From assembly GCF_963921235.1 (NCBI RefSeq), contig NC_086097.1:172796001-172860000 (forward strand): 64,000 nt of DNA, written 5' to 3'. The position numbers and the translations under genes are program-made. The notes under the pieces were generated by a model. The model was not told where the DNA came from. It saw only the letters and a list, made by a program, of their open reading frames with translations, and did no database searches. Shown one piece after another: positions 2,851 through 57,040 of this stretch (positions within the stretch are counted from its first letter, which is position 1; every line of letters begins with the position of its first letter). The DNA comes from Mobula hypostoma. Its lineage: Eukaryota.

Positions 2851-2935
2851 GTGTGTTAGTTGGAGTGTGGGAACTGGGGTCCCAGTGTGTTTGAGTGATT
2901 GTGGGAATTGGGTCCTGTTGTGTTAGAGGGAGAGT

Positions 2936-3064
2936 GGGAACTGGGTTCCCGGTCTGCCAGAGGGAGAGGAATGGGAACTGGGTTCCCGGTCTGCCAGAGG
3001 GAGAGGAATGGGAACTGGGTTCCCGGTCTGCCAGAGGGAGAGGAATGGGAACTGGGTTCCCGGT
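2936..3064. repeat. 37-bp minisatellite, 3 identical copies plus partial, degenerate copies on both flanks
   Basis: Unit gggaactgggttcccggtctgccagagggagaggaat starts at 2936, 2973, 3010, 3047. Confidence 0.95.
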
Positions 3065-3249
3065 GTGTAAGAGGGTGAGTGGAGTAGGGGTGCCATTATG
3101 TTGGAGGGAGCATGAAAATTAGCACCCAGTAAAACATGTGACAAACAATCAGAATCTCCAGATAATCAGATAGCAGTCTGTTGGAGTTTTACTATACATG
3201 AAAAGTATCACTTCCTACAACATTCTGAACTTAATCCTGCAAACAAGAT

Positions 3250-4855: not shown

Positions 4856-5666
4856 TTACTCCTGGTACCTGTTCTGTCATTTGATTAAACACACCACTGG
4901 TGAGAAAGACAAAATAAATTCCATTTTCTTCACTGCAAATGTTTGGGGAGTTTGTACTCTGTGCAGAAAACCTATTTTCATTACTAATGCCCACCGTTGG
5001 AGTAAATTGCTCATTTTCCCTGCAATTCCATCTCTGAGGATACTGCTCTGATCCTTCTTTCAAATCATCCTCACTTAAAACATACTGTTGCTTTTATTAT
5101 GGATTGTTAGAGCTAGAGATGCTCTGGGGTTTACAGGTTTTAATTTCCTGAATGATATAACAACATACCTCTTGCAAAAAAGCAATGAAGATCAGAAAGT
5201 GTTCCTGTACCACATATCTCACGTTCTCTTCAAGATGTCACATAGCACATCCATGAAATAATCTTGCTGCATAATGCAAGAAACCAGGCTGCCAACTTGT
5301 GCACAGAAAGATCCCACAAACAGTAATCGGAAGAGGGGCTGAATTGAGCTTGACTGGGCCTGCGATATTGGCTCACTTCTGAGTCCTGGACCAATGCAAT
5401 GGAATTGGAACTGGAGTTGAAATTGGTTTATTACTGTCACATGTGCCTCGATTCAGTGGCATCCTTGTAGAAGAGATCCACCAGGATATTTCCGGGAATA
5501 GATGGATATAGTTATAAAGAGACAGTGGATAGTTTGGATTTGCCCTCACTGGAATGTAGATGGCTGAGGGAAGGGGCTTATAGAGGTTTACAAAATAATG
5601 CGGAACATAGATGGGAACAATAGTCAGAATCTTTTCCTCAGGGAAAGAAAGTCTTGAAGTATAAGG

Positions 5667-5859
5667 TGCAACACACAAAATACTGGAGGAACTCTGTAGG
5701 TCAGGCAGCATCTGTGGAGAGAAATAAAATGAACAGATTTTTCAGGACTGATGAAAAGTCATTGTGTCCATTTCCCTCCATAGACGCTGCATGACCTGTT
5801 GAGGTCCTCCAGCATTTTGTGTCTGTTATTACTGTTTTCGAGCATCTGCATTCTTCTGT
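5667..5859. mobile_element. Head-to-head pair of Penelope-like termini inserted in a CR1 fragment
   Basis: tactggaggaactc..aggtcaggcagcatct versus agacgctgcatgacctgttgaggtcctccagca; flanked by gtcttgaagtataagg (5651-5666) and gtccagaattataagg (5860-5875). Confidence 0.7.
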
Positions 5860-6126
5860 GTCCAGAATTATAAGGCACGGGTTTTAGGTGAGAAAAATTC
5901 AGAAGGGCTCTGAAGGGTAAGTTTGTCCACATAGAGATTGGTATACAGAAAGAGGAATTAGTAGAAGTGAATACACTTATAATGTTTAAAAGGCATTTGA
6001 AGAGGGAGAGGAAAGGAATAGAGAGATATGGGCATAATACAGGCAAATGATATTAGCATTGGTAGTTATCATGGTTGGCATGGACGAGGTGGTCACAAAG
6101 GACTCATTTAGTAAGACCATAAGACA

Positions 6127-7836: not shown

Positions 7837-8485
7837 CAATGTTCCCTCTAATTTGTAATCACCTGTTTGCACAAAAATCTTGTGCTGTGCATTTTTTTGC
7901 CCAGTGACAACACCATGTGTGCACTATATTTTATATATAGGTGTATTCATTTTTAACAAAATGAATACATGCCAGCAAAACACTGTCAATAAGAATTTTG
8001 ATCTCCTCTGGATTTGATCGTTTTGGCTCGCATTCATTTGCATTCTTACAAAACATACGTAGCAGGTCTGTAGTAGGTTATGAAGGATTTTCTCACCAGA
8101 GCTATGGAACACCATCCACATGTGATTTGCTTGCTAAATGACACTTTAAAAAGTCCAGTTTCCAAATATCACTCTACTTCTTCCCAGTTGCAAATTCTTC
8201 AGCAACTTTTGCACCGTGACAATACACACAGGAAACACCAGTTATTGTACATAAATAAATACTGTAGCTGCACATTCCTGACCTCATGAGCTTTCGGTGT
8301 AGCAGCTTCTACTGTTTCATTAAGCCATTCTGCTATAAGTGCTATAAATAAGCAGTTCTTTTGCACTTTACACCCTTTACTACTTCAGATTTGACATAGT
8401 GAATCAATAATTTACTCAATAAAAACAGGATAAATAAGCCAGTTCTAAAATCTGCAGACAAATCATTACAAGCTCCAAGTTGTCA
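7837..8485 (-). mobile_element. Decayed hAT DNA transposon fragment (TTF-type zinc finger, ZNF862-like transposase N-terminus) with one terminus
   Basis: Manual minus-strand translation GVSCVYCHGAKVAEEFATGKK*SDIWKLDFLKCHLASKSH with stops; terminus-like caatgttccctctaa at 7837; other end lost at the CR1 starting about 8488. Confidence 0.65.
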
Positions 8486-9719: not shown

Positions 9720-10310
9720 TGTGCCATCTACATTTGTACAGTGAAAAAACATCCATTCAGATAATTTCATCACATTGGTACATCAAGACAGTACATTGGA
9801 AAGCCAATAACAGAATGCAGAATATAGTGTTATAGCTACAGAGAAAGTGCAGTGTGCAGGTAGACAACAAGGTGCATGGCCATGATGAGGTCGTTGTGAG
9901 GTCAAGAGTCCATCTTATTGTACATGAGGTCCATTCTGTAGTTTTGTAACATTAGGATAGAAGCTGTCCTTGTGCCTGGCTTTTGTATCCTCTGCCCGAT
10001 GGGGGGAGGGGGGTTGGGGAAGAAAAGGGAATGTCCAGGGTGGGTGGGTGTTGGATTTTGTTGAGTGCTTTACCGAGGCAGTGGGAAGTGTAGACAGAGT
10101 CTATGGAGGGAGAGCTGATTTGTTTTTTCTGTCACTGAGCTGTGTCCACAATTCTCTGCAGTTTCTTGCAGTCACAGGCCAGGCAGTTACCATACCAAGG
10201 CATGATGCATCTGGATAAGATGCTTTCTGTAATGCACCTGTAAAAATCAGTCAAAAGGGACACATTAAATGTCCTTAACCTCCTGAGGAAGTTGAGGCAC
10301 TGGTTAAAAC
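9720..10310 (-). mobile_element. Rex1/Babar-type LINE 3' fragment
   Basis: ORF 10132..10584 C-terminal half: FLRRLRTFNVS..FYRCITESILSRCIMPWYGNC..KLQRIVDTAQ. Confidence 0.8.
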
Positions 10311-10719
10311 AGGATGCAGCATATACTGCCTTACCCAACATCCAGAGCTCCAACCCGACATCCAGTACTGTGTGTGTGGAGTTTGCACATTCTAACAGAG
10401 TGCTCCAGTTTCCTCCTACAGCTTGGGGACACAGGAGACTGCAGATGCTGGGATGTGGAGCAACAAACAATCTGTTGGAATGACTCACTGAGTTCCCCTT
10501 AACACATTGTTGCTCCAGTTCGCCACTGTAAACTGTTCCTTGTGTAGGAAGGCAGAGGGTGGTAGGAGAATCAGAGGGAATCAATGGTCATGTGAATTTG
10601 CAGTAGAATCAATGTGCAATGAGACTGATGGGGATGCTGTAAGACTTGATGCTCCAATTGACCTCCTTCAGTGACAAGAGAAAATATAAAATAAGAGTCC
10701 ACAGACAGCAAAGTTCTTT

Positions 10720-11110: not shown

Positions 11111-12012
11111 GAGCTCTCTGTTCAAAACAATAGCGGACAGATAACATGAACCTTGGTATGTTGATTGAAGGACAAATACTGATCAGGAGTCCTGGATAAG
11201 GCCGAGTGCTTGGTTAACACCTCATTGGAGAGACAGAAACTCCAGCAGCATGACAGCACTACCGGGGAACTTCATCAGCCAGGGTTCAAAAGGATGTGGT
11301 GTTGAATGAGGGTAAAACAAAACTGCAGATACCAGAAATATAAATTTTATTTATTTAGAGATATAACAAGGTAACAGACTCTTCCAGACTAAGGACCCCG
11401 CGCTGCCCAATTACACCCATGTGACCTATTAACCTTCTGTCTTTAAAATGTGGGAGGAAACCAGAGCACCCAAAAGAAATCCACATGGTTACGGAGATAG
11501 CATACAATCTCATAACAGACAGCCGCAGGAATTGAAATTAAGGTGAAAATTAAAAACAGAAGGTTTTGGAAATGCTCAGCCAGTCAGGCAGCAAATGTGG
11601 GAAGAGAAACAATATTAAAGACATTTCATCAGAATGACTCAGTGGGCCAAATGGCCTCCTTCAGTGGCATGAGAAAATATTAAATAAGCTTCCTCAGATG
11701 GCAAAACAGTAACATGAAATTTGGGGTAAAAGATTCTTCATTAGAAAGTATCTTCCAACTGCATCAACAACTCTATTCCTCTGCCCACCGATGTGGTTCG
11801 ATCTGCTGGGTATTTCCAGCATTTCCTGAGATGGGCTGAAGTAGTTTCTGTCAACCAAGAATATTTTGGGCTCAATGGCTTGGTTTCTATCCTGTTAACT
11901 GAAAGAAATCCTCACCTGGCCCCCATCAATGGAATCCCAAACCTAACTCACCGATCCTGAACTGTCACTGGATCAGTTCAATGGACTCTGTCTGCATTCT
12001 GGTTATTGCTAT

Positions 12013-15297: not shown

Positions 15298-17175
15298 CAT
15301 TTCCTCCATAATCATAGTCAGCAGGCCTCTAAAATACTTTAATGGGCTGTGGAGCTCATCAGGTTTGGAACAATGGAAACAGGAATATTAGTCTATCCTT
15401 CTATTAGATTCCTCCTCTTCTGAAGCCCCATACTCAGTGTTTCGGGAACAACTTCCTACTCTCGGCCATCTGGTTTCTGATCGCTCCATGAACACCACCT
15501 CACAATTCCTCTTTTGCATTATTTATTTGCTTGTTTATTGTAACATAGTAACTTCTTATGTCTTGCGTTGTACTGCATCACTCAACAACAAATTTCACGA
15601 TAAATGGTGTAGTGATAATAAATCAGACTCTGATCCTGATTCTGTAGCATTTAGCAAGGGTTGTTGTTGAGTTACTCTTTGGTTGTGCAGCGTCTTTGTC
15701 TGACCCCACTGGAGGAGCTCAATGGATCGTGCAGCCCTGGTGGGAGGAAAGAATTGTTTGATGTTTCTGGTTGGAACCCAGCATCAGCGCTCAACGAGAG
15801 ACCTCTTGTCCTCCCGATGACAGTGAGTACAACCTCTTATGTCCTCTGTCTGATGATACCTGGACGTGAGCAAACAGTTCTAGGCAGCAGATTCAGTAAT
15901 TTTGTTACTTACTTAACACTAGAAAATAGGAGCAGGAGGAGGCCACTTGGTCTCTCAAGCCTGCCCTGTCATTTAATATAATTGTGGCAAATCTATGAAC
16001 ATTACACAAAACACTGGAGGAACTCAACAGATCATGTAACATCTATGGAGAGAAATAAAGAGTCAATGTTTTGGGTTTTCATCAGGCCCTGACGTCTCCA
16101 ATGTTGCTACATTCCTTTATGTAAGGGGATCAAAGTTGTGCACAGTATTCCATCTGTGGCCTCACCAACACCCTTACAACTGTAACAAAACCTTCCCATT
16201 CATAAACTCCAACCCCTTTGTAATAAAGGCCAACAAGTTGTATACCTTCTGTACTACTTGTTGCCTTTGTCACGGTCATACAGCAGGGAAACAGGCCCTT
16301 CAGCCCAACTTGTCCATGCTAGTCCCATTTGCCTATGTTTGGACTATATCCTCCAAAACCTGTCATTCAGGGTTACTCATGGGATAAATTATAAAGATCA
16401 GGTTACAAGCGTTTAGCTTGAATTCCCATGAATTTTGCCAGCTGATCTTTCTTACTGAGATGTGGAAAGAGGTCGTCTGGCCCATAGAGATCATACCAAT
16501 GCCCAGCAAAGCAATCTCATTCATCTTATTCCCCTCTCCATACTTCCATCAATCCCTACAAATTCTACTCTTGCATATGCTCGTCAATATTCCTTTGATT
16601 CCTTTGTCAGTCATCCACACTAAAGGGCATTTTACAGTAGCCAGCATGAAGGATACTTGAGGAAATTGAAGTATGCAGGAAAAGCCCACGTGATCATGGA
16701 GAGAAGGTGCAATCTGAACACACACAGCACCAGTTGTCAGGGTCAGATTTGGATCCATGGGGTAGCAACTTCAGCCTCCTTGATGAGCTTAATAATTCCG
16801 GGATCCTGGCTTTGTTATTGGTTTATTATTATGTGTAGCAAGATACAGTGTCAAACTTTGCTTTTTATGTCATCCAGGCAGAACAGGCTATACATGAATA
16901 TAAAGAGATAGTAAAAATAAAATTGAATGTAAAATATAGTGTTGTAGTTACAGAGAAAGTACAAATAGAGTGTAAGGGCCACAATAAGGTCAATTGAGAG
17001 ATTGAGCTAAGAGATCGAGAGCTCATCCTTCAGTGTAAGAGAGCTCCATTCAAGAGTTTGATAACAGCAGGATAGAAAGAGCAGAAGTTCCTACACCCAT
17101 GCTGAGCTCATCAATTTCATAACTGCTTCCACGTTCCACCTTACCCTCAAGATTACTTTGTCCATCTCAAATGAA

Positions 17176-17845
17176 AGTTCAAAGTACAAAGTAAGTTTAT
17201 AAGCAAAGTACATATGTGTCACGATATACGATCCTCAGATTCATTTTCTTGTGGCCATTCACAGTAGATACAAAGAAACATACAACAAAGATGGACAAAC
17301 AACCAATGTACAGAAGGCAACAAACTATGCAAAGTCAAAAGAAGAAGAAATAAATAATCAAATAATAAATATTGAGAACACGAGTTGTAGAATCCTTGAG
17401 AATGAGTCCATAAAATGTGGAATCAGTTTAGAGATGGGGTGAGTGAAGTTATCTCTCTGATTCAAGAGCCTTATAGTTGAGAGGTAATAATTGTTCCTGA
17501 ACCTGGCGGTGTGGGTCCTGAAGCTCCTGTATCTCCTTCGTGATGGCCGCAGTGAGAAGAGAGTATGACTTGGATGAGTATGGTGGGGGTCCTTGATGAT
17601 GGATGCTGCTTCCATACAACAGCACTCCATGTAGATGTGCTCAGTGGTGAGGAGGGCTTTACCTGAAATAGACTGGGCCATATCCACTACTTTTGGAAGG
17701 TTTTTCCATTTAAGGACATAGGTGTTCTCATACCAGGCTTTGACACAACCAGTCATGTATCTATAGAAGCTTGTCAAAGTTTTAGCTGACATGCAAAATC
17801 TATGCAAATCTCTAAGAAAGTAGAGGCACTGCCATGCCTTCTTTG
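17176..17845 (-). mobile_element. Rex1/Babar-type LINE 3' fragment
   Basis: ORF 17358..17879 KKAWQCLYFLRDLHRFCMSAKTLTSFYR..IIKDPHH..HPSHTLFSLRPSRRRYRSFRTHTARFRNNYY. Confidence 0.87.
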
Positions 17846-17927
17846 TCAGAATCAGAATCAGGTTTATTATCACCGGCATGTGACGTGAAACTTGTTAACT
17901 TAGCAGCAGTAGTTCAATGCCATACAT

Positions 17928-19314: not shown

Positions 19315-19895
19315 AGGACTAGATCCTCTGAAAAGATTACACCAAGGAACTTAAAGTTGCTGACCCTCTCCACCTCTGATCACTTGATGAGGACTGGCTC
19401 AAGGACCTCTGGTTTCCTCCTCGGATAGTCAATTATCAGCTTTTTGGTTTTGTTGAAATTGAGTAAGAGGTTGTTGGTGTGGCACCACTCAGCTAGATTT
19501 TTAATCTCTCTTCTATTAGCTGATTCACCACCACCACCTTCAATTTGTCCCCGAACCGTGGTGTTGTCAGCAAATTTAAATATGGCATTGAAGCTATACT
19601 AAGCCTCACATTCATTAACTGTACAGCAGGGGGCTAAGCACACAGCCTTGTGGTGCTGCTGACTGTGGAGGAAATGTTGTCAATCCAAAATAACTGGAGT
19701 CTACAAATTGAGGATGCAGTTGCACAAGGACGTATTGAACCTAGGTTTTGGAGCTTATTGATTAGTTTTGAGGGGACGATAGCATTGAATGCAGAGCTCC
19801 AGTCAACAAAGAGCATCCTGATGTATGCACCTTCACTGTCCAAATCTTCCAGGGTTGAGTGAAGAGCCAATGAAATGGCATCAGCTATTGACCTG
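19315..19895 (-). mobile_element. Rex1/Babar-type LINE RT fragment
   Basis: ORF 19634..20047 RSIADAISLALHSTLEDLDSEGAYIRMLFVDWSSAFNAIVPSKLINKLQNLG; KFADNT-like motif near 19560-19580. Confidence 0.85.
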
Positions 19896-19899
19896 CTCA

Positions 19900-20240
19900 A
19901 GAGATGCTCTAACAGCTCTTTCCCCTTTCTTGATCTATTGACATCTTTTACAAGCCCACTGACCTTCACAGTTAGTGTAGCTATACCTCTTCCCACCCTG
20001 TTACCTGTAAAAATGATGTTGCCTTCTCTCAGTTCCTCTTCCTCCACTGCATCTGTTCTCAGGATGAGGTTTTCCAGCTGGTTTCACCTATCATCTTGCA
20101 GCCTGTAATCCTTCCCCTGCCCCCACCTCTTATTCTGGCTTCTAGTCCTGATGAAGAGTCTCAGCCCAAAATGTTGACTGTTTACTTCCTTCCATATATG
20201 CTACCTAACTTCTGAGTTCCTCCGGTATTTTGGGTGTTTC
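19900..20240 (+). mobile_element. Penelope-like element remnant: post-RT segment fused to 3' terminus
   Basis: Frameshifted YKPTDLHS*CSYTSSHPVTCK..FSQFL..CICSQDE, then terminus with agtcctgatgaagagtctcagccc. Confidence 0.72.
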
Positions 20241-21287: not shown

Positions 21288-23148
21288 ATTGAAGTGAGTT
21301 GAATTGACTTTATTTCTTACATCCTTCACATACATGAGGATTAAAAATCTTTACATTACATCTGTCTAAATGTGCAATGTGCAGTTTATAGTAATTTATA
21401 ATAAAGAGCATGTACAACAGGACAGTCAATATAGCATAGAAATACAGTCGTATCAGTGTGAATTAATCAGTCTGACGGCCTGGTGAAAGAAGCTGTCCCA
21501 GAGCCTGTTGGTCCTGGCTTTTATGCTGTGGTACCGTTTCCCGGATGGTAGCAGCTGGAACAGTTTGTAGTTGGGGTAACTCAGGTCCCCAATAATCCTT
21601 TGGGCCCTTTTTACACATGTGTATCTGCAAATGTCCTGAATAGTGGGAAGTTCACATCTACAGATGTGCTGGGCTGTCCACACCACTCTCTGCAGAGTCC
21701 TACGATTGAGGAAAGTACAGTTTCCATACCAGGCAGTGATACTGCCAGTCAGGATGCTCTCAGTTGTGCCCCTGTAGAGAGTCCTTAGGATTTGGGGACT
21801 CATACCAACTTCTTCAAGCATCTGAGGTGAAAGAGGCGCTGTTGTGCTTTTTTCACCATACAGCTGGTATGTACAGACCATGTGAGATCTTCGGCGATGT
21901 GTATGCTGAGGAATTTAAAGCTGTTCAGTCTCTCAGCTCCAGATTCATTGATGTCAATAGGGATCAATAGCCCGTTTCCATTCCTCCTATAGTCCACAAA
22001 CAGCTCCTTTGTTTTTGCGACATTGAGGGAGAGGTTGTTTCTGGACACCGATGTGTCAGGGTGATGACTTCTTCTCTGTAGGCTGTCTCGTTATTATTTA
22101 AGATAAGGCCAATCAATGTAGTATCGTCAGCAAATTTTAATTAGCACAGTGGTCCCCAGCCACCAGGCCGCAAAGCATGTGCTACCGGACCGCGAGGAAA
22201 CAATATGAGTCAGCTGGACCTTTCCTCAATCCCTGTCACGCACTGTATCACTTGAACATAGGGTTACCAACTGTCCTGAATTTGCCGGGACGTCCCGTAT
22301 ATTGGGCTAAGTTGGTTTGTCCCATACAGGACCACCCTTGTCCTGTATTTCCCCCGCTAAGGTAGAGCGTTCCTATGAAACGTTTCATGCCGAAATAGCG
22401 TGAAGCGAAGAAGCAGTTATCATTAATTTATATAGGAAAAATTTTTGAGCGTTCCCAGTCCCAAAAAATAACCTACCAAATGATACCAAATAACACATAA
22501 AACCAAAAATAAATAACACTAACATATAGTAAAAGCAGGAATGATATGATAAATACACAGCCTATATAAAGTAGAAATACAGTATAGTACAGTATAGTCG
22601 GGAAGATGAAGGCAAAACCGATTTGTGGGGAAAAAAATCGGCACGTACGCGCATGCGCACATCACATGCACACGTCATGCATGCGCACACAGGTGCCCAC
22701 GCAAGGCTTCATGGTCATGGTAGTCTTTCCTGGGGTAAAGTGTCCCGGGGTTTGACTGCTACTTTTGTCCCTTATTTGGGAGTGAGAAAGTTGGCAAAGC
22801 TAACTGTAAAAGACATGTTGAGGTGAGTTTAACCCTACTTGAACACCCACCCCCGGTTGGCCAGTCCGCAAGAATATTGTCAATATTAAACCGGTCCGCG
22901 GTGCAAAAAAGGTTGGGGACCCCTGAATTAGCAGATTGGGACTGTAGGTGGCAACAGAGTCGTGGGTATACAGAGAGTAAAAGAGGGAGCTTAGGACATA
23001 GCCCTGAGGGACACCTGTGTTGAGGGTCAAAGGGGCATAGGTGAGGGAGCCTACTCTTGCCACCTGCTGGCAATCTGACAGAAAGTCCAGGATCCAGCTG
23101 CACAAGGCAAGGTGAAGGCTGATCTTGTCAAGCCTGGAGGGAATTATG
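21288..23148 (-). mobile_element. Rex1/Babar-type LINE RT plus C-terminal fragment interrupted by a hAT MITE
   Basis: WILDFLSD..LTLNTGVPQGYVLSSLFYSLYTHD; NNLSLNVAKTKELFVDYRR..KFLSIHIAEDLTW..KKAQQRLFHLR; LYRGTTESILTGSITAWYG. Confidence 0.92.
22147..22925 (-). mobile_element. Non-autonomous hAT MITE, copy 2 (inverted relative to copy 1), composite
   Basis: TIRs cagtggtccccagcc / ggttggggacccctg; perfect TSD aattagca (22139-22146, 22926-22933); nested element 22259-22837 flanked by cttgaaca. Confidence 0.94.
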
Positions 23149-24310: not shown

Positions 24311-25825
24311 TAGTGTTACTCACACGTGACTATATATCCATCATAGTTGTTGTTGGAGCAGAAGAATTTCCTAGCCCGTTCTATCTGATTTCCAGAGTCA
24401 AGGCAATATATCCGTGATCATAACAGAGCTTCACATTCAATTGGTTGATGCTCCTCAAACAAAATACTGTTAAATTTGCTAAACTGGTTTATTACTGTCT
24501 TATATGCCAAAGTACGATGACAAACTTTGTTTTGCATGCTATCCATCCATATCATTTTACTACAAGTTGAGTTGAGGTACTACAAGGAAAAAAAAATATC
24601 AGAATGTAGAATAAAGTGCTACAGTTACGGAGAAAGTGCAGGTAGTCAATGAGCAAGGCCATAATGAGGTCAGGGATCCACTTTATTGTACTAGGGGATC
24701 ATTCAGTAGACTTGTAACAGTGGAATAGAAACTGTTCTTGAGCCTGGTGGTATATGCTTTTAAGCTTTTGTATATTTTGTCTGATGGAAAATGGGCAGAG
24801 CCTACCATCAGGAGCTTGTCGAGCTGTTGCTTCCTTTTTGCTCTGCAGATGCACTGTTGTGATCCACTAGACCACAACAATACATTTTATTGTAAAACAA
24901 AATCACATTCTCTTCACTTGTGTAACCCCAACATCACTAAACCTGCCTAATTATATTAATTGACCATCTTATTGTCCAGAGACTACTTAATTATATCATT
25001 TCCCTAGATGCCCCTCTTACAATTATTAACCTTAACTACCTTGTTAGGGGCATTTGGAAGGGGCAGTAAATGCTGACAGAGAACCATAAAGCACTCAGTG
25101 GGTAAGACGACTCTTGTGAGAGAAACAAGGGTAGGATTTCTGATCAAAGACTGACAACAAAGTTATGATGAGAGGTCTTGAGCTGAAACACTAGCCTTGT
25201 TTCTTTTCTCACAGATGCTGCCTGACAGCTGATTGTTTCCAGCACTTTCTGTTTTGGTTTCATGTTTCCAACATCTGCAGATTTTATATTTGCAAAATGC
25301 ACTGACATTCAGTGAACGAATAAAGAGAAGCAGCATCTGACATTCAGATTTCCTACTTGTCTTTGTTCCCCCATCGTAATATATAGAAATCATGAGATTA
25401 CAAGTCCATTCAGCATTTGGTATACCCGGGAGATGCATATCAAATTCGTGCTGATGCTGATGTTTGCCTATTATCGGACCCATGAAATATTCCTGCCCAT
25501 ATTCTGTTAAAGCACAATGGGGGCCTCTACTCCAGCCTACATCCCTGTCCAAGGACATGCTGTAAGTTTGTCTTCTAACACCAGCCAGTTTCTGGATAAC
25601 AATCCAAAAATGATAAAGTTGTAACATCTGAGAGACTGCCTGCTGGGTTGCGGGAATCTCAGTGAGTCAGATCTTCTGCCACGGTGCCAGGACTCAGCTG
25701 GAGACCTTGGCGGAAGCCCCAGTTTCTCATTTAAACCGGGTATAAGCACAATATTTCCATCTTCATAAATGGGAAATATTATCAGCCTGGAGGAAACTGA
25801 AGCAGAACTTTGTAAGTAATATAAA

Positions 25826-26340: not shown

Positions 26341-26656
26341 GCATTGGTGAGCTGCCCCTCCAGTAATTCTGTCTAAACTTCCCTCTGCCTCAGGAAACCA
26401 GCCATCATAATTATGGACCCCTCCCACACTCCATTCCTCCCCCCACACTCCATTCCTCCCCCCCCCCAATCAGGCAAATGACACAAAGCTTCAGAACATG
26501 CACCACCAGGCTCAAGGCCTGCTTCTACCCTGCTGCTGTCAGTTAAAGGTGTTCTCCCAATCTGCCTGCATTGAGCTTTCTCTATTATGGTAACACTATA
26601 TTCCACATTCTGTTTTTCATTTTTACTACCTCAGTGTAGCTGTTCTCTGGAATGAT

Positions 26657-26783
26657 GAAGGATCTCAGCCTGAAACATCGACTATTTACTCTTTTCCATG
26701 GATGCTGCCTGGCCTGCTGAATTCTTCCGGCATTTTGCGTATGTTGCTTGGATTTCCAGCATCTGCAGATTTTCTTGTGTTCA
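26657..26783 (+). mobile_element. Short Penelope-like terminus with 9-bp TSD
   Basis: tggaatgat at 26648-26656 and 26784-26792; gatgctgcctggcctgctgaattcttccggcattttg core. Confidence 0.75.
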
Positions 26784-27694
26784 TGGAATGATCTGTCTGG
26801 ATTGCACACAAACCAAACACTTTTCACTGCATCTCTGTGTATGTAACAATGATAAACTAATTACAATTACACTTCAAATAAAGGGAGGCTGGACAGGCTG
26901 GTGCTGTTTTCTCTGGAGGCTAACAATAACCTTTCAGAGGTTTATAAAATCATGAGGGGCAGAGTTATGGTGGATAGTCACGGTGTTTTTCCAAGGTTGG
27001 GCATAGGTGAAAAGGAAAAGATTCAGGGGATCTGAGAGGCACATTTTCACACAGAAGGTGGTGGATCTAAGGAACAAGTTGCCAGTGGAAGTGGTAGAGA
27101 TGGGTACGGTTACAACACGTAAAAGGCAATTAGAGATTGAGCAGTAAGGTTTAGAGGGATATGGACCAAACCCAGGTAAGTAAGACTAACTCAGGTCGGT
27201 ATGGATGAGTTAGACCAGGCTACATAAATCTCAGCATATAAATTAGTCAGGGTAACAGACAAGTTGGGGCAGAGCGATGGGTGGGATAGAAGGAATTTCA
27301 CCGGAAGGATAAAATAAGATGACTAAGCTGTTTCTCTTTCCACTGATGTTCTATGACCCGCCAAGGGTTCCAGCATTTTAGACTTCTTTATTCAGAGTTT
27401 TCAGCATTTGCAATATTTTACTCTCTCGTGGTTGGAGTTGTTGTGTCAGGAACGCAGGGGACCAAGGAGAGGTGGATAAAATGATGAGAGGCTGAGAGAC
27501 AAATTACAGGAAGATTATGTCTCTATTGGCAGAGAGAAAATTAAGTAGATGGAGATGGGTTCATATTAATTGGTGTAAAGATGAGAGGGGAGTTGAGGAA
27601 AACAATTCCAACCAATGAATGATGGAGATCTGGAGCTCACAGGTGACAGAGGCAAAAAAACACCCACTGCACTTAAACAGCACACGAATACGCA

Positions 27695-30488: not shown

Positions 30489-33482
30489 TCAGTACCCTTT
30501 TCCTGCCTTCTCCCCATATCCCTTCACTCCGCTATCTTTAAGAGCTCTATCTAACTCTTTTTTGAAAGAATCCAGAGAATTGGCCTCCACTCCCTTCTGA
30601 GGCAGAGCATTCCATAGAACCACAACCCTCTGTGTGAAGAAGTTTTTCCTCAACTCCTTTCTAAATTGTCTACCCCTTATTTTTAAACTATGGCCTCTGG
30701 TTCTGGACTCCCCCAACATCGCAAACATGTTTCCTGCCTCTAGCGTGTCCAATCCCTTAATAATCTTATATGTTTCAATCAGATCCCCTCTCATCCTTCT
30801 AATTTCCAGTGTATACAACCCCAGTCGCTCCAATCTTTCAACATATGACAGTCCCGCCATCCCAGGAATTAACCTCGTGAACCTATGCTGCACTCCCTCA
30901 ATAGCTAGAATGTCCTTCCTCAAATTTGGAGATCAAAACTGTACACAATATTCCAGGTGTCGTCTCACCAGGGCCCTGTACAACTGCAGAAGGACCTCTT
31001 TGCTCCTATACTCAATTCCCCTTGTTATGAAGGCCAGCATGCCATTAGCTTTCTTCACTGCCTGCTGTACCTGCATGCTTACTGTCAGTGACTGATGAAC
31101 AAGGACACCTAGATCTCGTTGTACTTCCCCTTTTCGAACTTGACACCATTCAGGTAGTAATCTGCCTTCCTGTTCTTGCCACCAAAGTGGATAACCTCAC
31201 ATTTATCCACATTAAACTGTATCTGCCATGCATCTGCCCACTCACCCAACCTGTCCAAGTCACCCTGCATTCTCATAACATCCTCCTCACATTTCACACT
31301 GCCACCCAGCTTTGTGTCATCTGCAAATTTGCTAATATTACTTTTAATCCCTTCATCTAAATCATTAATGTATATTGTAAATAGCTGCGGTCCCAGCACT
31401 GAGCCTTGCGGTACCCCACTAGTCACTGCCTGCCATTCTGAAAAGGACCCATTAATCCCTACTCTTTGTTTGCTGTCTGCCAACGAACTTTCTATCCATG
31501 TCAGTACCCTATCCCCAATACCATTTGCTCTAATTTTGCACACTAACCTCCTATGTGGGATCTTATCAAAGGTTTTCTGAAAGTCCAGATACACTACATT
31601 CTCTGGCTTTCCCATGTCCATTTTCATAGATACATTCTCAAAAAATTCCAGAAGGTTAGTCAAGCATGATTTCCCCTTCGTAAATCCATGTTGACTCGGA
31701 CCTATCCTGCCACTGCTATCCAAATATGCCGCTATTACATCTTTTATAGTTGATTCCAGCATCTTCCCCACCACTGATGTCAGACTAACTGGTCTATAAT
31801 TGCCTGTTTTCTCTCTCCCTCCTTTCTTAAAAAGTGGGATAATATTAGCTACCCTCCAATCCGCAGGAACTGATCCTGAATCTATAGAACATTGGAAAAT
31901 GATTACCAATGCGTCCACTATTTCTAGAGCCACCTTCTTAAGTACCCTGGGATGTAGACCATCAGGCCCTGGGGATTTATCAACCTTCAGTCCCATCAGC
32001 TTACCCAACACCATTTTGTGCCTGATGCAAATTTCCTTCTGTTACCCTAGGTCCTCTGGCCACTATTACATCTGGGAGATTGTTTGTGTCTTCCCTAGTG
32101 AAGACAGATCCAAAGTACCTGTTCAGCTCGTCTGCCATTTCCTTGTTCCCCATAATAATTTCAGCCGTTTCTGTCTTCAAGGGCCCAACTTTGGTCTTAA
32201 CTAATTTTTTCCTCTTCACATACCTAAAGAAGCTCTTACTATCCTCCTTTATATTTTTGGCTGGCTTACCTTCGTACCTCATCTCTCCCCCCCCGCCCCC
32301 CCATATAGCCTTTTTAGTTATCTTCTGCTGCTCCTTAAAAGTCTCCCAATCCTCTGGCTTCCCACTCATCCTTGCTATGTTCTACTTCCTCTCTTTTATT
32401 TTTATACTGTCCTTGACTTCCCCTGTCATCTACGGTCGCCCCTTACTCCCCTTAGAACCTTTCTTCCTCTTTGGAATGAACTGATCCTGCAACTTCTGTA
32501 TTATTCCCAGAAATACCTGCCATTGTTGTTCCACTGTCATCCCTGCTAGGGTATCTTTCCAGTCAACTTTTGCCAGCTCCTCCCTCGTGTGTCCATAGTC
32601 CCCTTTGTTCAACTGTAATACTGACACTTCTGATCTTCCCTTCCCCCTCTCAAATTGTAGATTAAAACTTATCATATTATGGTCACTACCTCCTAATGGC
32701 TCCTTTACCTCGAGTTCCCTTATCAAATCTGGCTCATTACACAACACTAAATCCAGAATTGCCTTCTCCCTGGTAGGCTCTAATACAAGCTGCTCTAAGA
32801 ATCCATCTCTGAGGCATTCCACAAACTCCCTTTCTTGGGATCCAGTGACAACCTGATTTTCCCAGTCTACCTGCATGTTAAAATCCCCCATAACAACCGT
32901 AGACTTACCTTTGCGACATGCCAATTTTAACTCTTGATTTAACTTGCACCCTATATCCAGGCTACTGTTTGGGGGCCTGTATAACTCCCATCAGGGTCTT
33001 TTTGCCCTTATAGTTTCTCAGTTCTATCCATACTGACTCTACATCTCCTGATTCTATGTCCCTCCTCGTAAGTGACTGAATTTCATTCCTCACCAACAGA
33101 GCCACCCCACCCCCTCTGTCAACCTGTCTGTCCTTTCGATAGGATGTATACCCTGAATATTCATTTCCCAGCCCTGGTCCTCTTGCAGCCATCTCTCTGT
33201 TATTCCCACAACATCATACTTGCCAATTTCCAACTGAGCCTCAAGCTCATCCATTTTATTTGTTATACTCCGTGCATTCGTATACAATACTTTTAATCCT
33301 TTTAAAGTAATACTTTTACTCCCCTCACCTTTCACATCGATTCCTATTGCATTTGTCCATACTCTCCGATCCCTTCCTGATCTTTCTGCCCCTTTAATTC
33401 TGTTGTCTTTCTTAACTTTTCTTATTCTCTCATTCCCTTTAACTCCATTCTTATATTTCCTGTTCATCCCCTCCCCCCCCAA
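30489..33482 (-). pseudogene. CR1 ORF2 (APE endonuclease + reverse transcriptase), frameshifted
   Basis: LYTNARSI..VGITE; GGGVALLV; MGDFN; LGGSDHNM; KSPGPDGLHPRVLK; NYRPVSLTS; YLDFQKTFDK; GVPQGSVLGP; KFADDTK; split over at least 6 ORF pieces. Confidence 0.95.
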
Positions 33483-33486
33483 CTAC

Positions 33487-34491
33487 TTAGTTTAAACACA
33501 CCCGTGTAGCAGTGGCAAACCTGCCTGCCAGAGCGCTGGTCCCCCGTCTGTTAAGGTGCAACCCGTCCCTTCTGTACAATTCATCCTTACCCCAAAACAG
33601 ATCCCAGTGGTCCAAGAATCTAAATCCCTGCCTCACGCACCAGCTCCTCAGCCACACATTCAGATCCCCTATCTCCCTGTTCATGTCCTCTCCAGCACAA
33701 GGTACTGGAAGCAAACCCAAGATAACCACCCTGGAGGTCATGCTTTTCAGTCTTCTTCTGAGTTCTCTGAAGTCTTGCTGCAAAATGTCTGTCATCTTCT
33801 TCCCGACATCATTTGTGCCGACATGCACCACCACCTCCGGCTGATCACCTTCTCCCTTGAGGATGCCCTGCAACCGGTCCGTGATGTCCTGGATCCTGGC
33901 ACCAGGGAGGCAACACACCATCCTTAAATCTCGCCTGTTGCCGCAGAAACCCCTATCTGTACCTCTCACTGTGGAATCCCCTACTACCACGCCTCTGCCT
34001 TACGTCTGTATCCTCGGCTTTATTTCAGCGCCAATTTTTGACTCACAGACCCGTCCGCCTCTCAGACTGGCACTGTCTTCTGTCCTGACAGCTTCCAAGA
34101 GGGTGAACTTGTTTTCAAGAGTCACATCCCCCGTGGTCTCCTGTACACCAAGCATCCATCCCTTCCTCATCGTCACCCCCCTTCTCTCTTCTGGTATCTT
34201 CGGTGTAACGATCTCGCTGCAGGCCCTGTCCACAAAAATCTTGTTTTCCCGGATGAACCTGAGGTCATCCAGTTGCCTCTCCAGTGCCTCAACACGGTCC
34301 TTCAGGAGCTGAACCCGGACACACTTTCCACATTTGTAGCAGCCAGAGGCGCCATCAATGTCCCTGACCTCCCACATCATGCAAGCAGCACACTGAATCA
34401 GTTGACCTGTCATCTCTTCACCACTTCTCACCCTCTCCAACTGTGGCATAGTCTCCTCCCTCAGCCTCCTCTCTGAAGACTCTCGAGCCAA
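33487..34491 (-). pseudogene. CR1 ORF1 (Cys-rich finger, coiled coil, SGNH esterase); one in-frame stop at 34000-34002
   Basis: CAAC..CGKC, VEALERQLDDL, then VVGDS, CLPGA, HVGTND, DGLHL; ORFs 34000..34491 and 33487..33990 share a frame. Confidence 0.93.
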
Positions 34492-34814
34492 AGACTCGCA
34501 CTTTTCTCACAAGGCACTTCCCTTGACAAGGTCGCTCCCCTAGAGCAAACCTTGATTATATTGGCTGATATTTGACTAATTCGTTCCAAGTGTCGCACCT
34601 CGGCTGACCTCGAACGTTTGTCTTGCAGGCTGGTCTCGACCGGGTTTTAAATCAACCGCTCCTTCTCAGCCAATGCCCTCACTCACTCCTTCAATTGTCG
34701 CACCTTGGCCGACCTCGAACGTTGTCACATATACTGAGGTAAAATGAAAACCTTTGTTTTGAATGCCATTCATATAGATTATTTCATCACATCACTACAC
34801 TGAAAAAGTGTACC

Positions 34815-35812: not shown

Positions 35813-38679
35813 ACACTTTGATCTCTTAGCACTAAAGTTGACTATTTTCATTCGAATTGCATTCCTTCTTGTAGAAGTTACATACAATTTATGTTCGGTT
35901 TACATTGTTTTTTTTTGTAAATGCTGCTTATCTGATGCGACGTGCCTGTGTTGCTGAAGTAAGTTTTATGTTGCACCAGTGCAAAACTACACTCGTGCAT
36001 TTGACAATAAACTCGACTTTCTTTAACTTTATGAGGCTGATTCACTTAAACTTCTGGGTGATAGTGACTCCCATAATATTGATGGTGGGGAACACAGTGT
36101 GCTAATGTCCACCATCTCCAGACTGAAAAGATGTACTTCAAGCTCTGTTAAAAAGCCATGCGCTTGTATGGTAACAGTAAATGCAGGTTTCCAAGTCAGA
36201 CTCCCGGAGTACTCAGCATTTCATTGTACATCTCATCCCCCTTCACCAACAGCCTGCCTCAACCATATTTACTGGCTAAAAGGTTGTGGTTGTGGTTCAG
36301 GATCTGTTTGGAAGAGCTGACCACAAATCCAGCTGTGGTACTGGATTCTATGTTACTGAAGGTGCCTTTATTCGGACCGGCAATTATATTTTTATGTAAA
36401 AGGTCTGCCACTTCTCTGAAGAAGAGCAGTAGTGTGAGAGAGTCAGCAAGAGATAGAGCTGAGGCACCCCCTGTCTGTGTGTGGGTGGGAGGATGGCAGA
36501 AGGGAAGGGGTTTGTTTTGCTGATGTGAGTTGTTGAACATTGTGGGCATGCTATACTGGCAGCAGAATATGGGGCAACACATGTAGGCTGTCCCCAACAC
36601 ACCCTCAGATTATATTGGTTAATGCAAATGATGCATTTCACTGTGTTTTGATGTACATGTGATTAATAAATAAATCTAATCTAATCTGAGTCCAACGTGA
36701 TGTACCCATTTACAATTATCTCAATACTAACATCATTTTTCTCTCCACCCAGATTCTACTACTTGCCTACATAGATGGGACAAGTTACAGTGGACAATTT
36801 AACCTACCAACACCCTTTGGGATGTAACAGAAAACAGGAGGACCCAGGGCAAAATCACAGAGTGACAGGGAGAACGTGCAAATTCCACACAGACATACCT
36901 GAGGTTAGCACTGGACAAGAGTCACTGGAGCTGAGAAGTGATGGAACTGCTAAATGTGCCACTATATCATTGCAAGGTAGTGTATAAAAACTATGGCAAA
37001 ACATTTTAATGTTTTTTAAAGTCTCAAAGAGCTACTTACTAACAGTAGGAATGAGGTTCTACAGTTGCACATAATTGTCTGGTCCCCTGGTTGAATGTAA
37101 CAACAGAAATATGAATCTATTTGTTGTAAAGTTGCTACAAACAATCTGCTTGAGGAACTCAATGTATTGAGCAGCATCAGTGAAAGTAAATGAATTGCTG
37201 ATGTTTTGGTTCAAAACCCTGCTTTAGGATCTATGCAGGGTCCCGATGTATAGTGTTAACATCAACGGTTCCTTTCTTCCCACAAATGCTGTTCAACCCG
37301 CTGAGTTCCTCCGGCAGGTTAGTTGCTGTTCCAAATGCCAGCATCTGAACTCTCTTGTGTCTGCGTTGAAAGGGTGCTGGTCCAGTTGAATACCAATCTG
37401 AACTTCATTTGGAGGAATTAATCGGTAACTAATGTGAACAGCCAGGAATTTCTTGAAGCACACGAGAAGGCTGAGTGCAAGTTGCTGTTTTCTTGTGCAG
37501 CACTGATATGAGTTATCCAGCAACTTATTTTTAGGGCCATAAATCGGTATGCAGATTTCATCACTGAGCATTTACAATACAAAGGCTCTCCCATCACTAT
37601 TAGGTTTCAGGGTCACTACATCAAAGCATTAGCAGCAAATTCTGGGTCAATGATAAGGAAGAGTGCAGAATAAAGTGCAATGCACTGTGCATCAGAATCT
37701 CCCAGTGTGCAAAGGAACAAGGCTACGTGACTGGAGTAGTGATAAGTATTCAAATATTAAAACTTAATTCAAGTGGTCACTAGAATTCTTCAAGAATTTC
37801 CTCACAACATACAAAAGCTTGGTAATAAAAAAACTCCAGCCAAATTCATTGGATGGAGATCATTCTGTTAAAATGTCTATAGTTAATCTCTTTCAGAAGT
37901 TACAAGAACTAAATTGCAAAGGCTCAATAATAAATCAGGTTTCAATGTGAACTTGCTCTTCATATTTATTTGTGGGTCCAGTAGTTGCAACATGAGGAAT
38001 GTAAGGTTCCAAATGACAAACAAAAGATAAACTTAAAGGGATGCACTCTGGATGGTGAACTTATGATTGTTCTTTGTATAAAAACATACATATAGGTGGT
38101 AAGTAATATAGGATAAGTGATATAGGATAAATGAAGTATCAGCAGGGAGTAATAAAATCTGAACTGCTTGCACACGTTGCACTTACAGATGGTGACAGGT
38201 GTACTAACTCTCTCCCTCTAGAGTAGGTTGTGCAGTGCACGCCCCAAACCCTACATCAGGACTGAACATAGAGAAGACAGGAGGAATTTGGGTCATTCAC
38301 ATTTATTTCAGAAGATCCAGGTATGCTTGTCTTCTGCAGGGAGAGGAAAGGAAGTAGAAGAAATCAAAATCCAGTGGAAACCAATTGATCAACTTGTGCT
38401 CGATCCAGACCATCTTTCCCACTCACTGCACCCTTCGTATGATGCCCATTATCACATTGACTTCTTACGGTGGGATCTATTCTATCAGAGGGCTCCAATA
38501 TATGACCCTTCTAAAGGTAGGGCCTTAAGTACCTGAGGCTCCATCCACTAGGGCTCCTCTGATTGAGAGTTTTAAAGGATATTTTCAAAGACAATTTAAA
38601 AAAAAATCTAATTATGTTTAAATAATCACTTAAAACACTTAAAATGACTGTAAATTGGTAACATAAAAGGGAAGACCTG

Positions 38680-39050: not shown

Positions 39051-39127
39051 CTTCCATAAATAAAGAAAAATAAACAAACAATAAAATAACTAACCCTTGT
39101 AATGAAGGTTACATGAATGGGGAAGCA

Positions 39128-39365
39128 ATGCACACAAAATGCTGGAGGAACTCAGCGAGTCAGGCAGCATCAATGGAGGGGAATAAACAGTCAACGCTTC
39201 AGGCGGAGACCCTTCACCAGGACTCCTGATCCTCGCCAATGGAAACTTGCCACTTATCAATAGGAAGTCCTAATTCAGGGTCTCGATCGGAAACATCATC
39301 AGTCTCTCCACTTCCCCAGATGCGACCTGACCTGATAAGTCCCTTCAGCAGTTGGTTTTTTGCTT
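39128..39365. mobile_element. Head-to-head Penelope-like termini
   Basis: gctggaggaactcagcgagtcaggcagcatc (-) and agatgcgacctgacctgataagtcccttcagca (+). Confidence 0.65.
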
Positions 39366-40250
39366 CAGTAGAGAAAGCTGAACTGTATTTACCAACCTAT
39401 GCGGCATTACAAAGGGCACCACAGTTAAGTCATTATGTGAAGTGATTCTCTCTTCTTATGTGGCAGGGATAGGGCAACTTGCACTATATGTTAATATTAA
39501 ACTTTTTCAAAGTTCACAGTTACATCAACTTTGTATGCGAGTATGGATTAATTTTTTTGGGCTAACTATTTCCCTTCCTTCACAAATTTTAACCCAGAAT
39601 TAGCAACAGGTTCCTCTCACCTATAAGTTGAGGCAGGAAGCAAACAAAGAACTTACTTTGCCCACATTTATGTCTTTGTTAAATGCAGTTATGAGCTTAA
39701 GGCATGCTTGAGGCCTTCTCTCCAGGACTAGCTTGCCCCTCAGGCAGCCACCTGAACTTGTCCCTCCTACACCATACAGTTGGAGAAGTGAGAACCCAGA
39801 TTCACTGCAACAAATGGACAAACCTGATCTGAATCTGTAGCACAACCACTGATTTCCAGTTATTGATTCACACGACGAGTAATCTGCTGGAGGAATGCAG
39901 TAGCTCAAGCAGCGTCAGTGGGGGTGGGAGGAATTATTGACATTTTGGGTCAAAATCCCTGAGGACCGAGGGTATGCATCTCTACTGATCCGCACACATC
40001 CATCTGCTTGTGACTCTCCTCCTCACTTAACCCTCAATTGCAACCCCTGTTGTATACTCACCTAATCTTTCATTGTAGATACTTCCTTCATTGCCTCCCA
40101 TTCTAATCCCAATTTCCACAACCCTGGGGTACTGCCTACATTTTCAATGATATCTGCCCCATGCCCCTGCCTCAGAGTCGACTTGCATTCACAGTGGGTG
40201 AATTACACCTCTCTAATCTTCACCAGTTACAGAGCATCAGGCTCTAATCC

Positions 40251-40486
40251 CAAACACAAGAAATGTTGCAGATGCTGGAATTGTTGAGCAACACACACAA
40301 AAAAAAGAGCTGGAGGAACTCATTAAGTCAGGCAGCATCTATGGAGGGAAATAAACAGTCAGTGTTTCAGGCCGAGACCTTTCATCAGTCCTGATAAAGG
40401 GTCTTGGCCAGAAATGTTGACTGTTTATTCGCCTCCATAGCTGCTGCTTGACTTGGTGAGTTCCTCCTGCTTTTTGTGTGTGAAGT
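40251..40486. mobile_element. Palindromic (head-to-head) Penelope-like terminus pair with 8-bp TSD
   Basis: tctaatcc at 40243-40250 and 40487-40494; inverted arms centred near 40388. Confidence 0.8.
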
Positions 40487-47714: not shown

Positions 47715-48160
47715 CCCTTTTTCTCTCCTCTTCCCCCCCCCCCCAATTTTTATTTTTTCCCCATTCTGGTGGCCTTCTCACCCCTTCTCTTCCTCTCGCT
47801 GGCCTCATGACCTGCCCAACAGTCCCCTCTGGTTCCCCACTTCCTGCCCTTTATTCCCTTTAGGATTCTGATCTACTATCTTCGCTAATCAGAATCCTTC
47901 TTCTACAGCCATTTACTTCTTCCACAATTACCTCCCAGTTTTATTACATCATCCCTCCTTCCCCACCCACCAACGTTCCTCCTCATCTAGTTTCACCTAT
48001 CACCTGCCAACTTGTACTCTTCCATTTCCTCACCCCACCATCTTATTCTGGTTTCTGCCCCCTTTTCAGTCCTGCTAAAGGGTCTTGGCATGAAATATCG
48101 ATTGTTTCTCTCCATGGATGCTGCCTGACCTGGTGAGATCCCCCAGCATTTTGTGTGTTA
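47715..48160 (+). mobile_element. Penelope-like 3' region
   Basis: Pyrimidine-rich segment shared with 20078-20240, ending cagtcctgctaaagggtcttggcatgaaatatcgattg..gatgctgcctgacctgg. Confidence 0.7.
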
Positions 48161-50792: not shown

Positions 50793-51619
50793 TACCTCAC
50801 AGACAGATAATTTCAAATTTTAATGTGCCTGTATTTAACAAAATCCCCACATCCACCCTGTGCATTTGACCAATATTTCATATTTCATATCTATTTTTTC
50901 CATTATCTTGCACTCAGTTTTGAACATCCTTTCCACAACATGGATTCTATCAGTTCCTTGTGGACCATTTAATCCCTTCAAACACTTAGTTTTACAGTTC
51001 TCCCCACATTCTTATTAGCTCCACCAGGTTCCTTCCCTCACCCAAACCCTCGGGGAGATTTAGAAACAGAATCAGATTTATTATCATTGATTTACATTAT
51101 ATGGAATGAAATGTGTTGTTTTGTGGCAGTAATACAGAGCAAAGGCATAAAGTTACTAAAATAAATAGTGCAAAAAATAGAATAATAGGATTGTGTTCAT
51201 CAGCTTATAGATTTATGGGTTTATGGATCGTTTTGAAATCTGCTGGATGGAAAGAAGCTGTTGCTGAAATATTGAGTGTGAGTCTTCAGGCTCTTGTATC
51301 TCCTCCCTCATGATAGTAAAGAGGGGTGTTGGACTGAAACGTTAACTGTTTGTTCATTTCCATGGATGCTGCCTGACCTACTCAGTTCCTCCAGTATTTT
51401 TGTATGTTGGTAATGAGAAGAGGGCATGCCCTGGATGGTGAGGGTTCTTGCTGATGGATGCCACTGTCTTAAGATAGCCTTGATGGTAGAGACGGTTGTA
51501 ACCGTGATGGAACTGGCTTACTCTATAATTCTTTGCAACTTCTTGTAATCCTGTGCATTGGAGCTTCCAAACCAGGCTGTAATGCAGTCAGTCAGAATTT
51601 ATAGCAACTGATTAACTGC

Positions 51620-56264: not shown

Positions 56265-57040
56265 AAGAATGCAGAGAGGATTTATGAGTTGTTGCTGGTA
56301 CGTGAGGCCTTGAGTTATAGGGAGAGGTTGGGGAGATTAAGACTTTATTTCTTGGAGCGTAGGAGACTGAGAGGTGACCTTACAGAGGTGTATGCTGGTG
56401 AGGCTGCATTTGGAGTATTGTGTTCAGTTTTTGTTGCCATGCTAGAAGAAAGATGGTGTTAAACTGGAAAGAGTGCAGAAAAGACTTACAAGGTTGTTGC
56501 CAGGTCTCGAGGGACTGAGCTACAGACAGAAGTTGGACAGGCTAGGAAGTTTTTCCTTGAAGCATAGGAGACTGAAAGGTGATCTAATAGAGATGTATAA
56601 AAACGTGCAACACACACAAAATACCGAAAGAACTCAGCAGGCCAGGCAGCACCTATGGAAAAAAGGTACAGTCAACATACCAGCCCGAAACCCTTTGGCA
56701 GGACTGGCAGGACTCTCTTGTTCGTGATGTATAAAATCATGAGGGGTATAGATAGGGTGAACATTCAGTATTCTTCCCAGGGCTGGAGAAGCAAGGAATA
56801 GAGGACATTGGTTTAGCGTGAGAGGGGAGAGATAATAGGAACCTTAGGGATAACTTTAATCCAGAGGGAAGTCAGCATATGAAATGAGCTGGCAGAGGAG
56901 TGGTAGAGTCAGGGACATAAATAAAATTTAAAAGACACTTTGACTGGTTTAAAGGGGTGTGGACCTATTGCAGACAAATGGGACTAGTTTAAACAGGGTT
57001 CTTGGCATGAATGAGTTGGGGGTAACAGTCCCGTATTTGT
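56265..57040 (+). mobile_element. Tandem CR1 3' fragments with a Penelope-like terminus (56603-56725, -) inserted
   Basis: QKRLTRLLPGLEGLSYRQKLDRLG..KGDLIEMYK; gatgtataaaa duplicated at 56592-56602 and 56726-56736. Confidence 0.78.

Follow-up and report, generated by a model that had tools for sequence, protein, structure and literature searches.

Does the short sequence at positions 20144 to 20180 derive from a hammerhead ribozyme of a Penelope-like element (PLE), and, if so, how did it arrive and does it still act as a ribozyme? The question comes from a preliminary description of the window (the whole 64,000-nucleotide stretch of DNA analysed here), which had aligned seven such strings by eye and proposed a dispersed, high-copy family of minimal hammerhead motifs in PLE termini. 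Our analysis indicates that the copies are very probably 5'-truncated, dead insertions of the end module (a pseudo-LTR, pLTR, with or without a tail) of an endonuclease-positive PLE (probably Neptune/Nematis) in a genome like that of a myliobatiform ray, and that this module starts with a predicted minimal type I hammerhead of the kind known from metazoan PLEs.

A family of terminal repeats

All seven quoted strings are present in the window with the positions and strands reported for them, and the homology among them extends over about 95 bp, not 37: they make up the initial ~38 bases of a terminal repeat that measures 95-135 bp. Two of them, 40356-40390 on the minus strand and 40386 on the plus strand, are correctly placed but are not separate copies: they form a single head-to-head insertion (40253-40481), and the 'ga' with which the minus copy was quoted as starting is part of the partner arm.

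An nhmmer profile built from eight copies and searched on the 64-kb window gave 31 matches at E ≤ 10, 20 at E < 1 and 18 at E < 1e-3 (the eight seeds and ten non-seeds), and the reversed window, used as a control, gave eight matches with a best E of 4.8. The proposed high copy number is borne out. Nineteen of the 20 forward matches at E < 1 were retained (53043-53072, E 0.88, was omitted) and 17 of these were aligned; a longer profile from twelve seeds found 22 matches at E < 1 in the window. With its attached parts the family occupies 2,682 bp, and its relics occur about once per 3 kb in a window that is CpG-poor (observed/expected 0.28) and rich in LINE fragments. Patterns specific to the family had no match in viral contigs and none in metagenome contigs. 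The copies other than the flagged one, which is listed with its surroundings below, are as follows.

5664..5861, no single strand: head-to-head pair with internal deletions in both arms and a tail on the right one (8-copy profile and anatomy)
10429..10493, minus: tail-end relic without hammerhead (longer profile, E 9.4e-6)
11567..11641, minus: old, deleted copy (both profiles)
11766-11824, plus: weak relic near the 11567..11641 copy (longer profile)
15708..15796, minus: old diverged copy, 61% to consensus (longer profile)
15985..16087, minus: copy with stem II deleted (alignment and longer profile)
25159..25288, plus: older copy with tail (longer profile)
26652..26781, plus: copy starting within the first core box, full tail (longer profile)
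27329..27418, plus: old relic with tail, hammerhead unrecognisable (longer profile, E 5e-7)
37137..37362, no single strand: old head-to-head pair whose right arm has the tail (8-copy profile)
39117..39226, minus: copy nearest the consensus (88%), with A6>G and A15.1>G (alignment)
39261..39363, plus: older copy facing away from 39117..39226 across a spacer of ~40 bp (alignment and longer profile)
39881..39960, minus: old copy (both profiles)
40253..40481, no single strand: head-to-head pair joined at the hammerhead 5' edge, tail on the left arm (anatomy)
47715..48159, plus: longest copy, with ~350 bp of pyrimidine-rich upstream part, hammerhead at 48067-48104 and short end (left edge set by eye)
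51308..51409, plus: copy without an intact first core box, quoted earlier as 51323 (alignment and longer profile)
56603..56710, minus: copy with 8/12 core positions (alignment)

Target duplications of 9-13 bp flank four of the 17 unit definitions tested. They are an exact 9-bp duplication at 26648/26784 and, each with one mismatch, duplications of 11 bp at 5656/5865 (around the first pair, which sits nested in a CR1-like fragment), 10 bp at 40241/40485 and 13 bp at 56592/56726. At the 5' junction of the last of these copies (56706-56725, minus), a short stretch of the motif's first bases is duplicated, and some twelve additional bases precede the target duplication. The copy at 39261..39363 may be an insertion independent of its neighbour at 39117..39226.

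A hammerhead-like consensus and its decayed copies

In the family consensus, the majority letter is the hammerhead core letter in all 12 core columns (10-16 of the 17 copies per column), and CUGANGA, GAAA and UH occur in this order. The TG/CA pattern left by decayed CpG is seen in four column pairs, and restoring CpG there yields the ancestor that had been proposed by eye, its one ambiguous position (c/u) being resolved as c. The minimal type I hammerhead described earlier, with stem I, a short stem II and a palindromic ACGU, is therefore found in the consensus of the family as a predicted RNA: helices I and II of 5 and 4 bp (pair probabilities 0.90-1.00), a palindromic 15.2-16.2 in the place of helix III, an extra base after A9, and G10.1-C11.1. 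To judge from these predicted features, the consensus fits the published consensus of minimal hammerheads (min-HHRs) feature by feature, within the portions of PMC4209133 considered here. The minimum free energy (MFE) fold of the monomer mispairs the core, with the open-core fold making up 2% of the ensemble, and the predicted dimer differs from the active arrangement, the palindrome contributing only -1.7 kcal/mol.

None of the 17 aligned copies has an intact 12-position core, and six keep 11 of the 12 positions. An Rfam scan of the window returned no hammerhead among its 13 matches at E ≤ 10, and a family-independent descriptor found 0, 0 and 1 matches at 0, 1 and 2 core mismatches, versus 0, 0.12 and 0.8 in 25 shuffles. 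Stem covariation is absent within the decayed family, its score being reached by 292 of 500 shuffles. Taken one by one, none of the copies qualifies as a significant hammerhead; the evidence is weak for each copy and strong for the family. Matches to microRNA families at 37146 and 40329-40450 lie far below the Rfam gathering scores and arise from the inverted pairs, and they were rejected. The predicted fold of the 40253..40481 pair is one long hairpin (-136.7 kcal/mol, z -16.75).

The substitutions suggest how the copies decayed. As had been proposed, many are CpG transitions: among the seven copies first described, CpG sites account for 25 of 39 differences and CpG transitions for 23, with 25 of 56 CpG cells changed versus 14 of 184 others. 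Outside CpG, the core has diverged as much as the downstream flank (10/73 vs 45/339 in eight copies, p = 1.0), which, together with the lack of stem covariation, is the pattern expected of unselected copies. Identity to the consensus ranges from 61 to 88%. The suspicion that most copies are dead agrees with the absence of intact cores and with a core decaying as fast as its flank, and we consider the copies in the window probably dead.

Contigs from public runs that align on the 48067 copy number at least 15,429-16,000 per DNA-type run, a depth that gives no copy number. A6 is restored at 48075 in 78-88% of the depth in three organisms, and the loose-end consensus in run X5 has the second core box and the palindrome intact. 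These ancestral letters support the consensus core independently of the window alignment; run X1 may be the source sample, and the independent weight rests on X5 and X9. No loose ends lead into an open reading frame (ORF) among those listed. The 48067 insertion itself is common to organisms B and C, contigs of B bridging both junctions and a contig of C the left one, so that this insertion is old.

The same core in metagenome contigs

A generic core pattern occurs at 117 loci in metagenome contigs and at none in viral contigs. Stem I extends at least 3 pairs beyond the pattern in 27 of 70 distinct metagenome motifs (against a mean of 6.2 and at most 14 among 2,000 controls), and stem II is extended in 60 of the 70 (control 28.5, maximum 43), counts in which related copies are not independent and which describe other animals' families, different from the one in the window. 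Only the core is common to these loci and the window family. Among the ORFs neighbouring the motifs (24 scanned of 87 listed), four encode a reverse transcriptase (RT) and a GIY-YIG domain on the same strand as the motif, and four more encode an RT. One of these ORFs led to the 120 PLE-type proteins that served as queries against the window. At L005:260-3406 (plus), a stop-free PLE frame of 1,049 codons starts 62 bp before its hammerhead.

The flagged locus and its link to Penelope

The flagged motif lies at the end of the following series, all on the plus strand.

19908..19937, plus: probable remnant of the C-terminal 'FLD' motif of PLE RT (E 0.19-0.20 in a 631-bp subject; colinear with 19934..20077)
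19934..20077, plus: PLE RT thumb-region fragment, 48 codons, one in-frame stop (hmmsearch iE 9.5e-14)
20071..20143, plus: final ~70 bp of the pyrimidine-rich stretch that precedes the hammerhead (77% to the upstream portion of copy 48067 over 74 nt)
20144..20239, plus: flagged hammerhead-bearing terminal repeat, with the motif at 20144..20180 and the remainder (20181..20239) reaching the short, tail-less 3' end

The thumb fragment is matched by 101 of 130 PLE queries at E < 1e-3, and those queries match nowhere else in the window. It is 62-70% identical to the Hypanus/Mobula proteins P0135-P0137, which carry PF26215 (HTH_animal). The FLD-like remnant is in a different frame, with a short deletion between the two. 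At ~20071 the RT fragment joins directly to the upstream sequence of the repeat, ~70 bp before the flagged motif and on the same strand, and 20071..20143 may represent the end of the PLE 3' UTR. The endonuclease region is absent from this copy, probably through an internal deletion of about 1 kb. We therefore read the locus as, most plausibly, an internally deleted PLE copy comprising RT thumb, 3' UTR end, hammerhead and short end, with the endonuclease lost. What is new here is that the flagged hammerhead copy is joined on the same strand to a PLE RT-thumb fragment.

The motif itself keeps 11 of 12 core positions, with G12>A at 20168, stem I 5/5, stem II 3/4 and a broken palindrome; the position equivalent to the cut site is 20175/20176. 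Its MFE fold is not hammerhead-like, and it folds no better than shuffles (z -0.12). A search found no target duplication around the copy, and none was seen by eye at the edge of the RT fragment.

The Penelope origin assumed from the start gains support from the abutting RT fragment, the tails, the inverted pairs and the target duplications, with the link from RT to hammerhead provided by one copy. Of the expected connection of the termini to elements with both RT and GIY-YIG, the RT part was found (19934-20077, in that copy) and the GIY-YIG part, deleted from it, was not. The window contains no full-length element and no full pLTR-ORF-pLTR partial tandem, and a Pfam scan of its 250 stop-to-stop frames of at least 70 aa gave no GIY-YIG or PLE domain. 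The RT fragment escaped that scan because of its in-frame stop and emerged only with PLE proteins as queries; Pfam had no match for the 51-aa RT fragment or for the relative P0139. In the ray relatives P0135, P0136 and P0139, the RT region is followed by a Cx4CxxC linker and then by GIY-YIG-like motifs, which were seen by eye in the 67%-identical P0139 and matched by Pfam in the more distant P0072. The Neptune/Nematis assignment is probable and is drawn from the Cx2-5CxxC linker, which was seen in these ray relatives and not in the window.

Two isolated PLE coding scraps of ~100 bp have no terminal repeat beside them: one from the RT region at 17071-17178 (plus, E 7e-5) and one from the GIY-YIG region at 51667-51759 (plus, E 1e-3). 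On the minus strand, a further RT-like fragment (~19700-19890, by eye) abuts the PLE piece at the flagged locus.

A PLE ORF starting at an ATG in the second half of the repeat was considered and rejected: no stored PLE protein matches the peptide motifs that the repeat encodes, and the 13 proteins that do match are host or unnamed proteins without PLE domains, the ten with a species name being from Mobula, Hypanus or Hemitrygon, an indication that the host is a myliobatiform ray. In predicted ray proteins P0001, P0002, P0004-P0008 and P0010-P0012, repeat-encoded peptides occur terminally or internally amid unrelated host sequence, reflecting either exonisation or an annotation artefact. For annotation, such repeats are to be treated as PLE ends and not as genes for ribozymes or microRNAs.

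Insertion anatomy and 5' ends

The copies have two alternative 3' ends, five of 19 carrying an extra tail of ~35 bp (two of these being references), and in all three clear head-to-head pairs the tail is on one arm only. Two separate head-to-head insertions have the same junction (5740-5750 and 40383-40394), in which one arm starts from C3 and the other from stem I, with a 3-base overlap.

With the longer profile, 11 of 22 matches begin between -4 and +5 relative to the base that opens stem I. Setting both arms of 40253-40481 by hand raises the number that start at the motif's upstream edge to 13 of 22, a count biased by the fact that most seeds start at the motif edge and that the upstream part of the profile rests on two copies. 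Two short copies starting at this edge are bounded by target duplications. The other 5' ends are at +11/+12 (two), near the cut site at +33 (three), at +65 (one) and upstream (three, one of them weak, E 0.05). The three starts within 6 nt of the cut site (11766, 27329, 37258) are all old or at an inversion junction and were not counted as evidence. If cut RNA were the template, starts at +33 would be expected; this is mostly not so, which fits, and hints at, uncut RNA copied up to its 5' end.

Other features of the window

A broken hAT-type transposase lies at 44965-46849 (plus), with DUF4371 (E 1.6e-4) and a hAT dimerisation domain (E 8e-10), and no terminal inverted repeats are evident for this element. 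Four long LINE copies, which we take to be CR1, retain endonuclease and RT pieces (30489-34506, minus; 42205-44458, plus; 53559-55871, minus; 59241-62846, plus), two of them with a GDSL-esterase-like ORF1. Fragments of another LINE family match Pfam ALKBH8_N (10135-10587, 17361-17894, 21803-22090, 34778-35302). A weak Pfam Daxx match at 8077-8286 (plus; E 2.2e-4, below the curated cut-off) may be due to chance or to an exon, and a 37-bp minisatellite of about 7.5 copies occupies 2837-3110.

Discussion

The end-module reading suggests a sequence of steps, drawn from published PLE work. The RT-GIY-YIG protein of the element would nick the DNA, and reverse transcription would start internally, at either of two sites that lie ~95 and 135 nt downstream from where the motif begins at its 5' edge; this choice would explain the optional tail. 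Synthesis would mostly stop early, often with a fold-back that gives rise to inverted pairs. In the parent RNA, the motif without helix III would cut after GUC only as a dimer formed through the ACGU palindrome, or with the help of a protein; its self-cleavage is likely weak and may be dispensable for transposition, and the genomic copies would be passengers under no visible selection.

We propose tentatively, and with more doubt than confidence, that the short copies are strong-stop-like cDNAs, extending from one of the two internal RT start sites to the true 5' end of the RNA. This end would coincide with the hammerhead's upstream edge, and retrotransposition would bypass the ribozyme. On this view, the transcription start is preserved in the genome, as is evidence that the in vivo template is uncut RNA; longer copies could arise only by a template jump or from a tandem transcript. 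By analogy, these strong-stop-like products might be linked to the internal RT initiation described in the parts of PMC11167929 considered here.

The concentration of 5' ends at the motif (13 of 22 matches starting at -4 to +5 of its first base, two of them set by hand) and the identical fold-back junction in two insertions could also be explained if the short unit were a non-autonomous SINE- or MITE-like family with its own master copies, moved in trans by the PLE. We consider this unlikely, given the variable 3' ends and internal deletions, the spread of identities to the consensus (61 to 88%), the two copies that continue into upstream PLE sequence, and a tRNA gene search of the window that found none. 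That each copy is a monomer of a non-LTR retrozyme, in which hammerhead repeats stand in tandem and spread via circular RNA, would agree with the derivation of such elements from PLE ends and with their report in one chondrichthyan genome (in the portion considered of bioRxiv 10.64898/2026.07.22.740005), but none of the nine tandem-repeat rows in the window overlaps a copy, neighbouring copies are head-to-head and not head-to-tail, and one carries PLE coding sequence, all of which makes this very unlikely.

Function and chance can be judged from the hammerhead core. G12 is the general base of the hammerhead, and the flagged copy has G12>A. This substitution, the lack of any intact core among the 17 copies, the equal divergence of core and flank (p = 1.0) and the fact that no host gene was identified in the window make it extremely unlikely that some copies are active or domesticated ribozymes regulating a host transcript, in spite of the 48067 insertion being found in three organisms and of the six copies with 11/12 core positions. 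Chance resemblance of the consensus to a hammerhead would be in line with the missing Rfam match, the lack of a descriptor excess for single copies and the lack of covariation in the family. Nevertheless, none of the 12 core letters is missing from the consensus, which also has both stems and the palindrome and occupies the position that the motif has in PLEs, and the same core, with covarying stems, adjoins PLE ORFs in other contigs; chance resemblance is thereby largely refuted and retains almost no probability. The reading of the copies as dead PLE end modules is the one we retain.

Comparison with known systems

The comparisons below refer to portions of each cited work. Min-HHRs of metazoan PLEs were described by Cervera and De la Pena 2014 (PMC4209133), and the predicted motif of the window family resembles them in CUGANGA with one extra base, G10.1-C11.1, GAAA, the two-base palindrome, UH, the lack of helix III, the 5-bp helix I and the U-rich flanks, as well as in occurring mostly as dispersed, single, truncated PLE copies, some of them close together on opposite strands. 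Helix II differs, with 4 bp including one G-U in the window family, whereas the published min-HHRs often have 5-8 bp. Thousands of hammerhead copies per genome are given there for coelacanth and Xenopus, and the portion of its alignment considered here includes no cartilaginous fish, while four terms for sharks or skates had no match in the supplements covered. Among the papers listed by our literature search, none was specifically about hammerheads of shark or ray PLEs, and the part of the main text of the Mobula genome preprint considered does not mention Penelope.

Insertion units of endonuclease-positive PLEs comprise a pLTR, an adjacent inverted truncated copy and an optional tail of 30-40 bp (PMC8557442, PMC3846280), and the window units share with them overlapping head-to-head inverted ends, a tail on one arm and internal deletions. 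Target duplications are 9-13 bp in the window and 8-10 bp in PMC3846280. A Cx2-5CxxC linker between RT and endonuclease is given for Neptune and Nematis (PMC8557442), and the ray relatives carry it. In contrast to the published units, most units in the window are just 95-230 bp long and lack any ORF. Non-LTR retrozymes likewise carry a type I hammerhead, and the non-coding repeat that contains it is also derived from PLE ends, but they are defined by head-to-tail tandem units (bioRxiv 10.64898/2026.07.22.740005), of which the window has none.

The Poseidon element PAc of Anolis (Frangieh et al. 2024, PMC11167929) also has a hammerhead at the pLTR and a tail downstream of the motif. Two internal RT start sites flank the tail of PAc, mutants of the hammerhead leave insertion unaffected, cleavage requires protein, and uncut RNA is the main template, which would fit the 5' ends seen in the window. 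The PAc ORF begins inside the hammerhead, and the hammerhead likewise overlaps the start of the frame at L005. The PAc start sites are AC-rich, whereas the two ends in the window are UG-rich on the hammerhead strand.

Motifs of this kind have thus already been published (PMC4209133, in the portions considered), and the finding at 20144 is correct but ordinary. The addition made by the ray is one of scale, a single family taking up 4.2% of the window. At this scale, a genome-wide tally of 5' ends, tails and inverted junctions could test two points of PLE mechanism: whether the template is cut in vivo by the hammerhead, and what process creates head-to-head ends.
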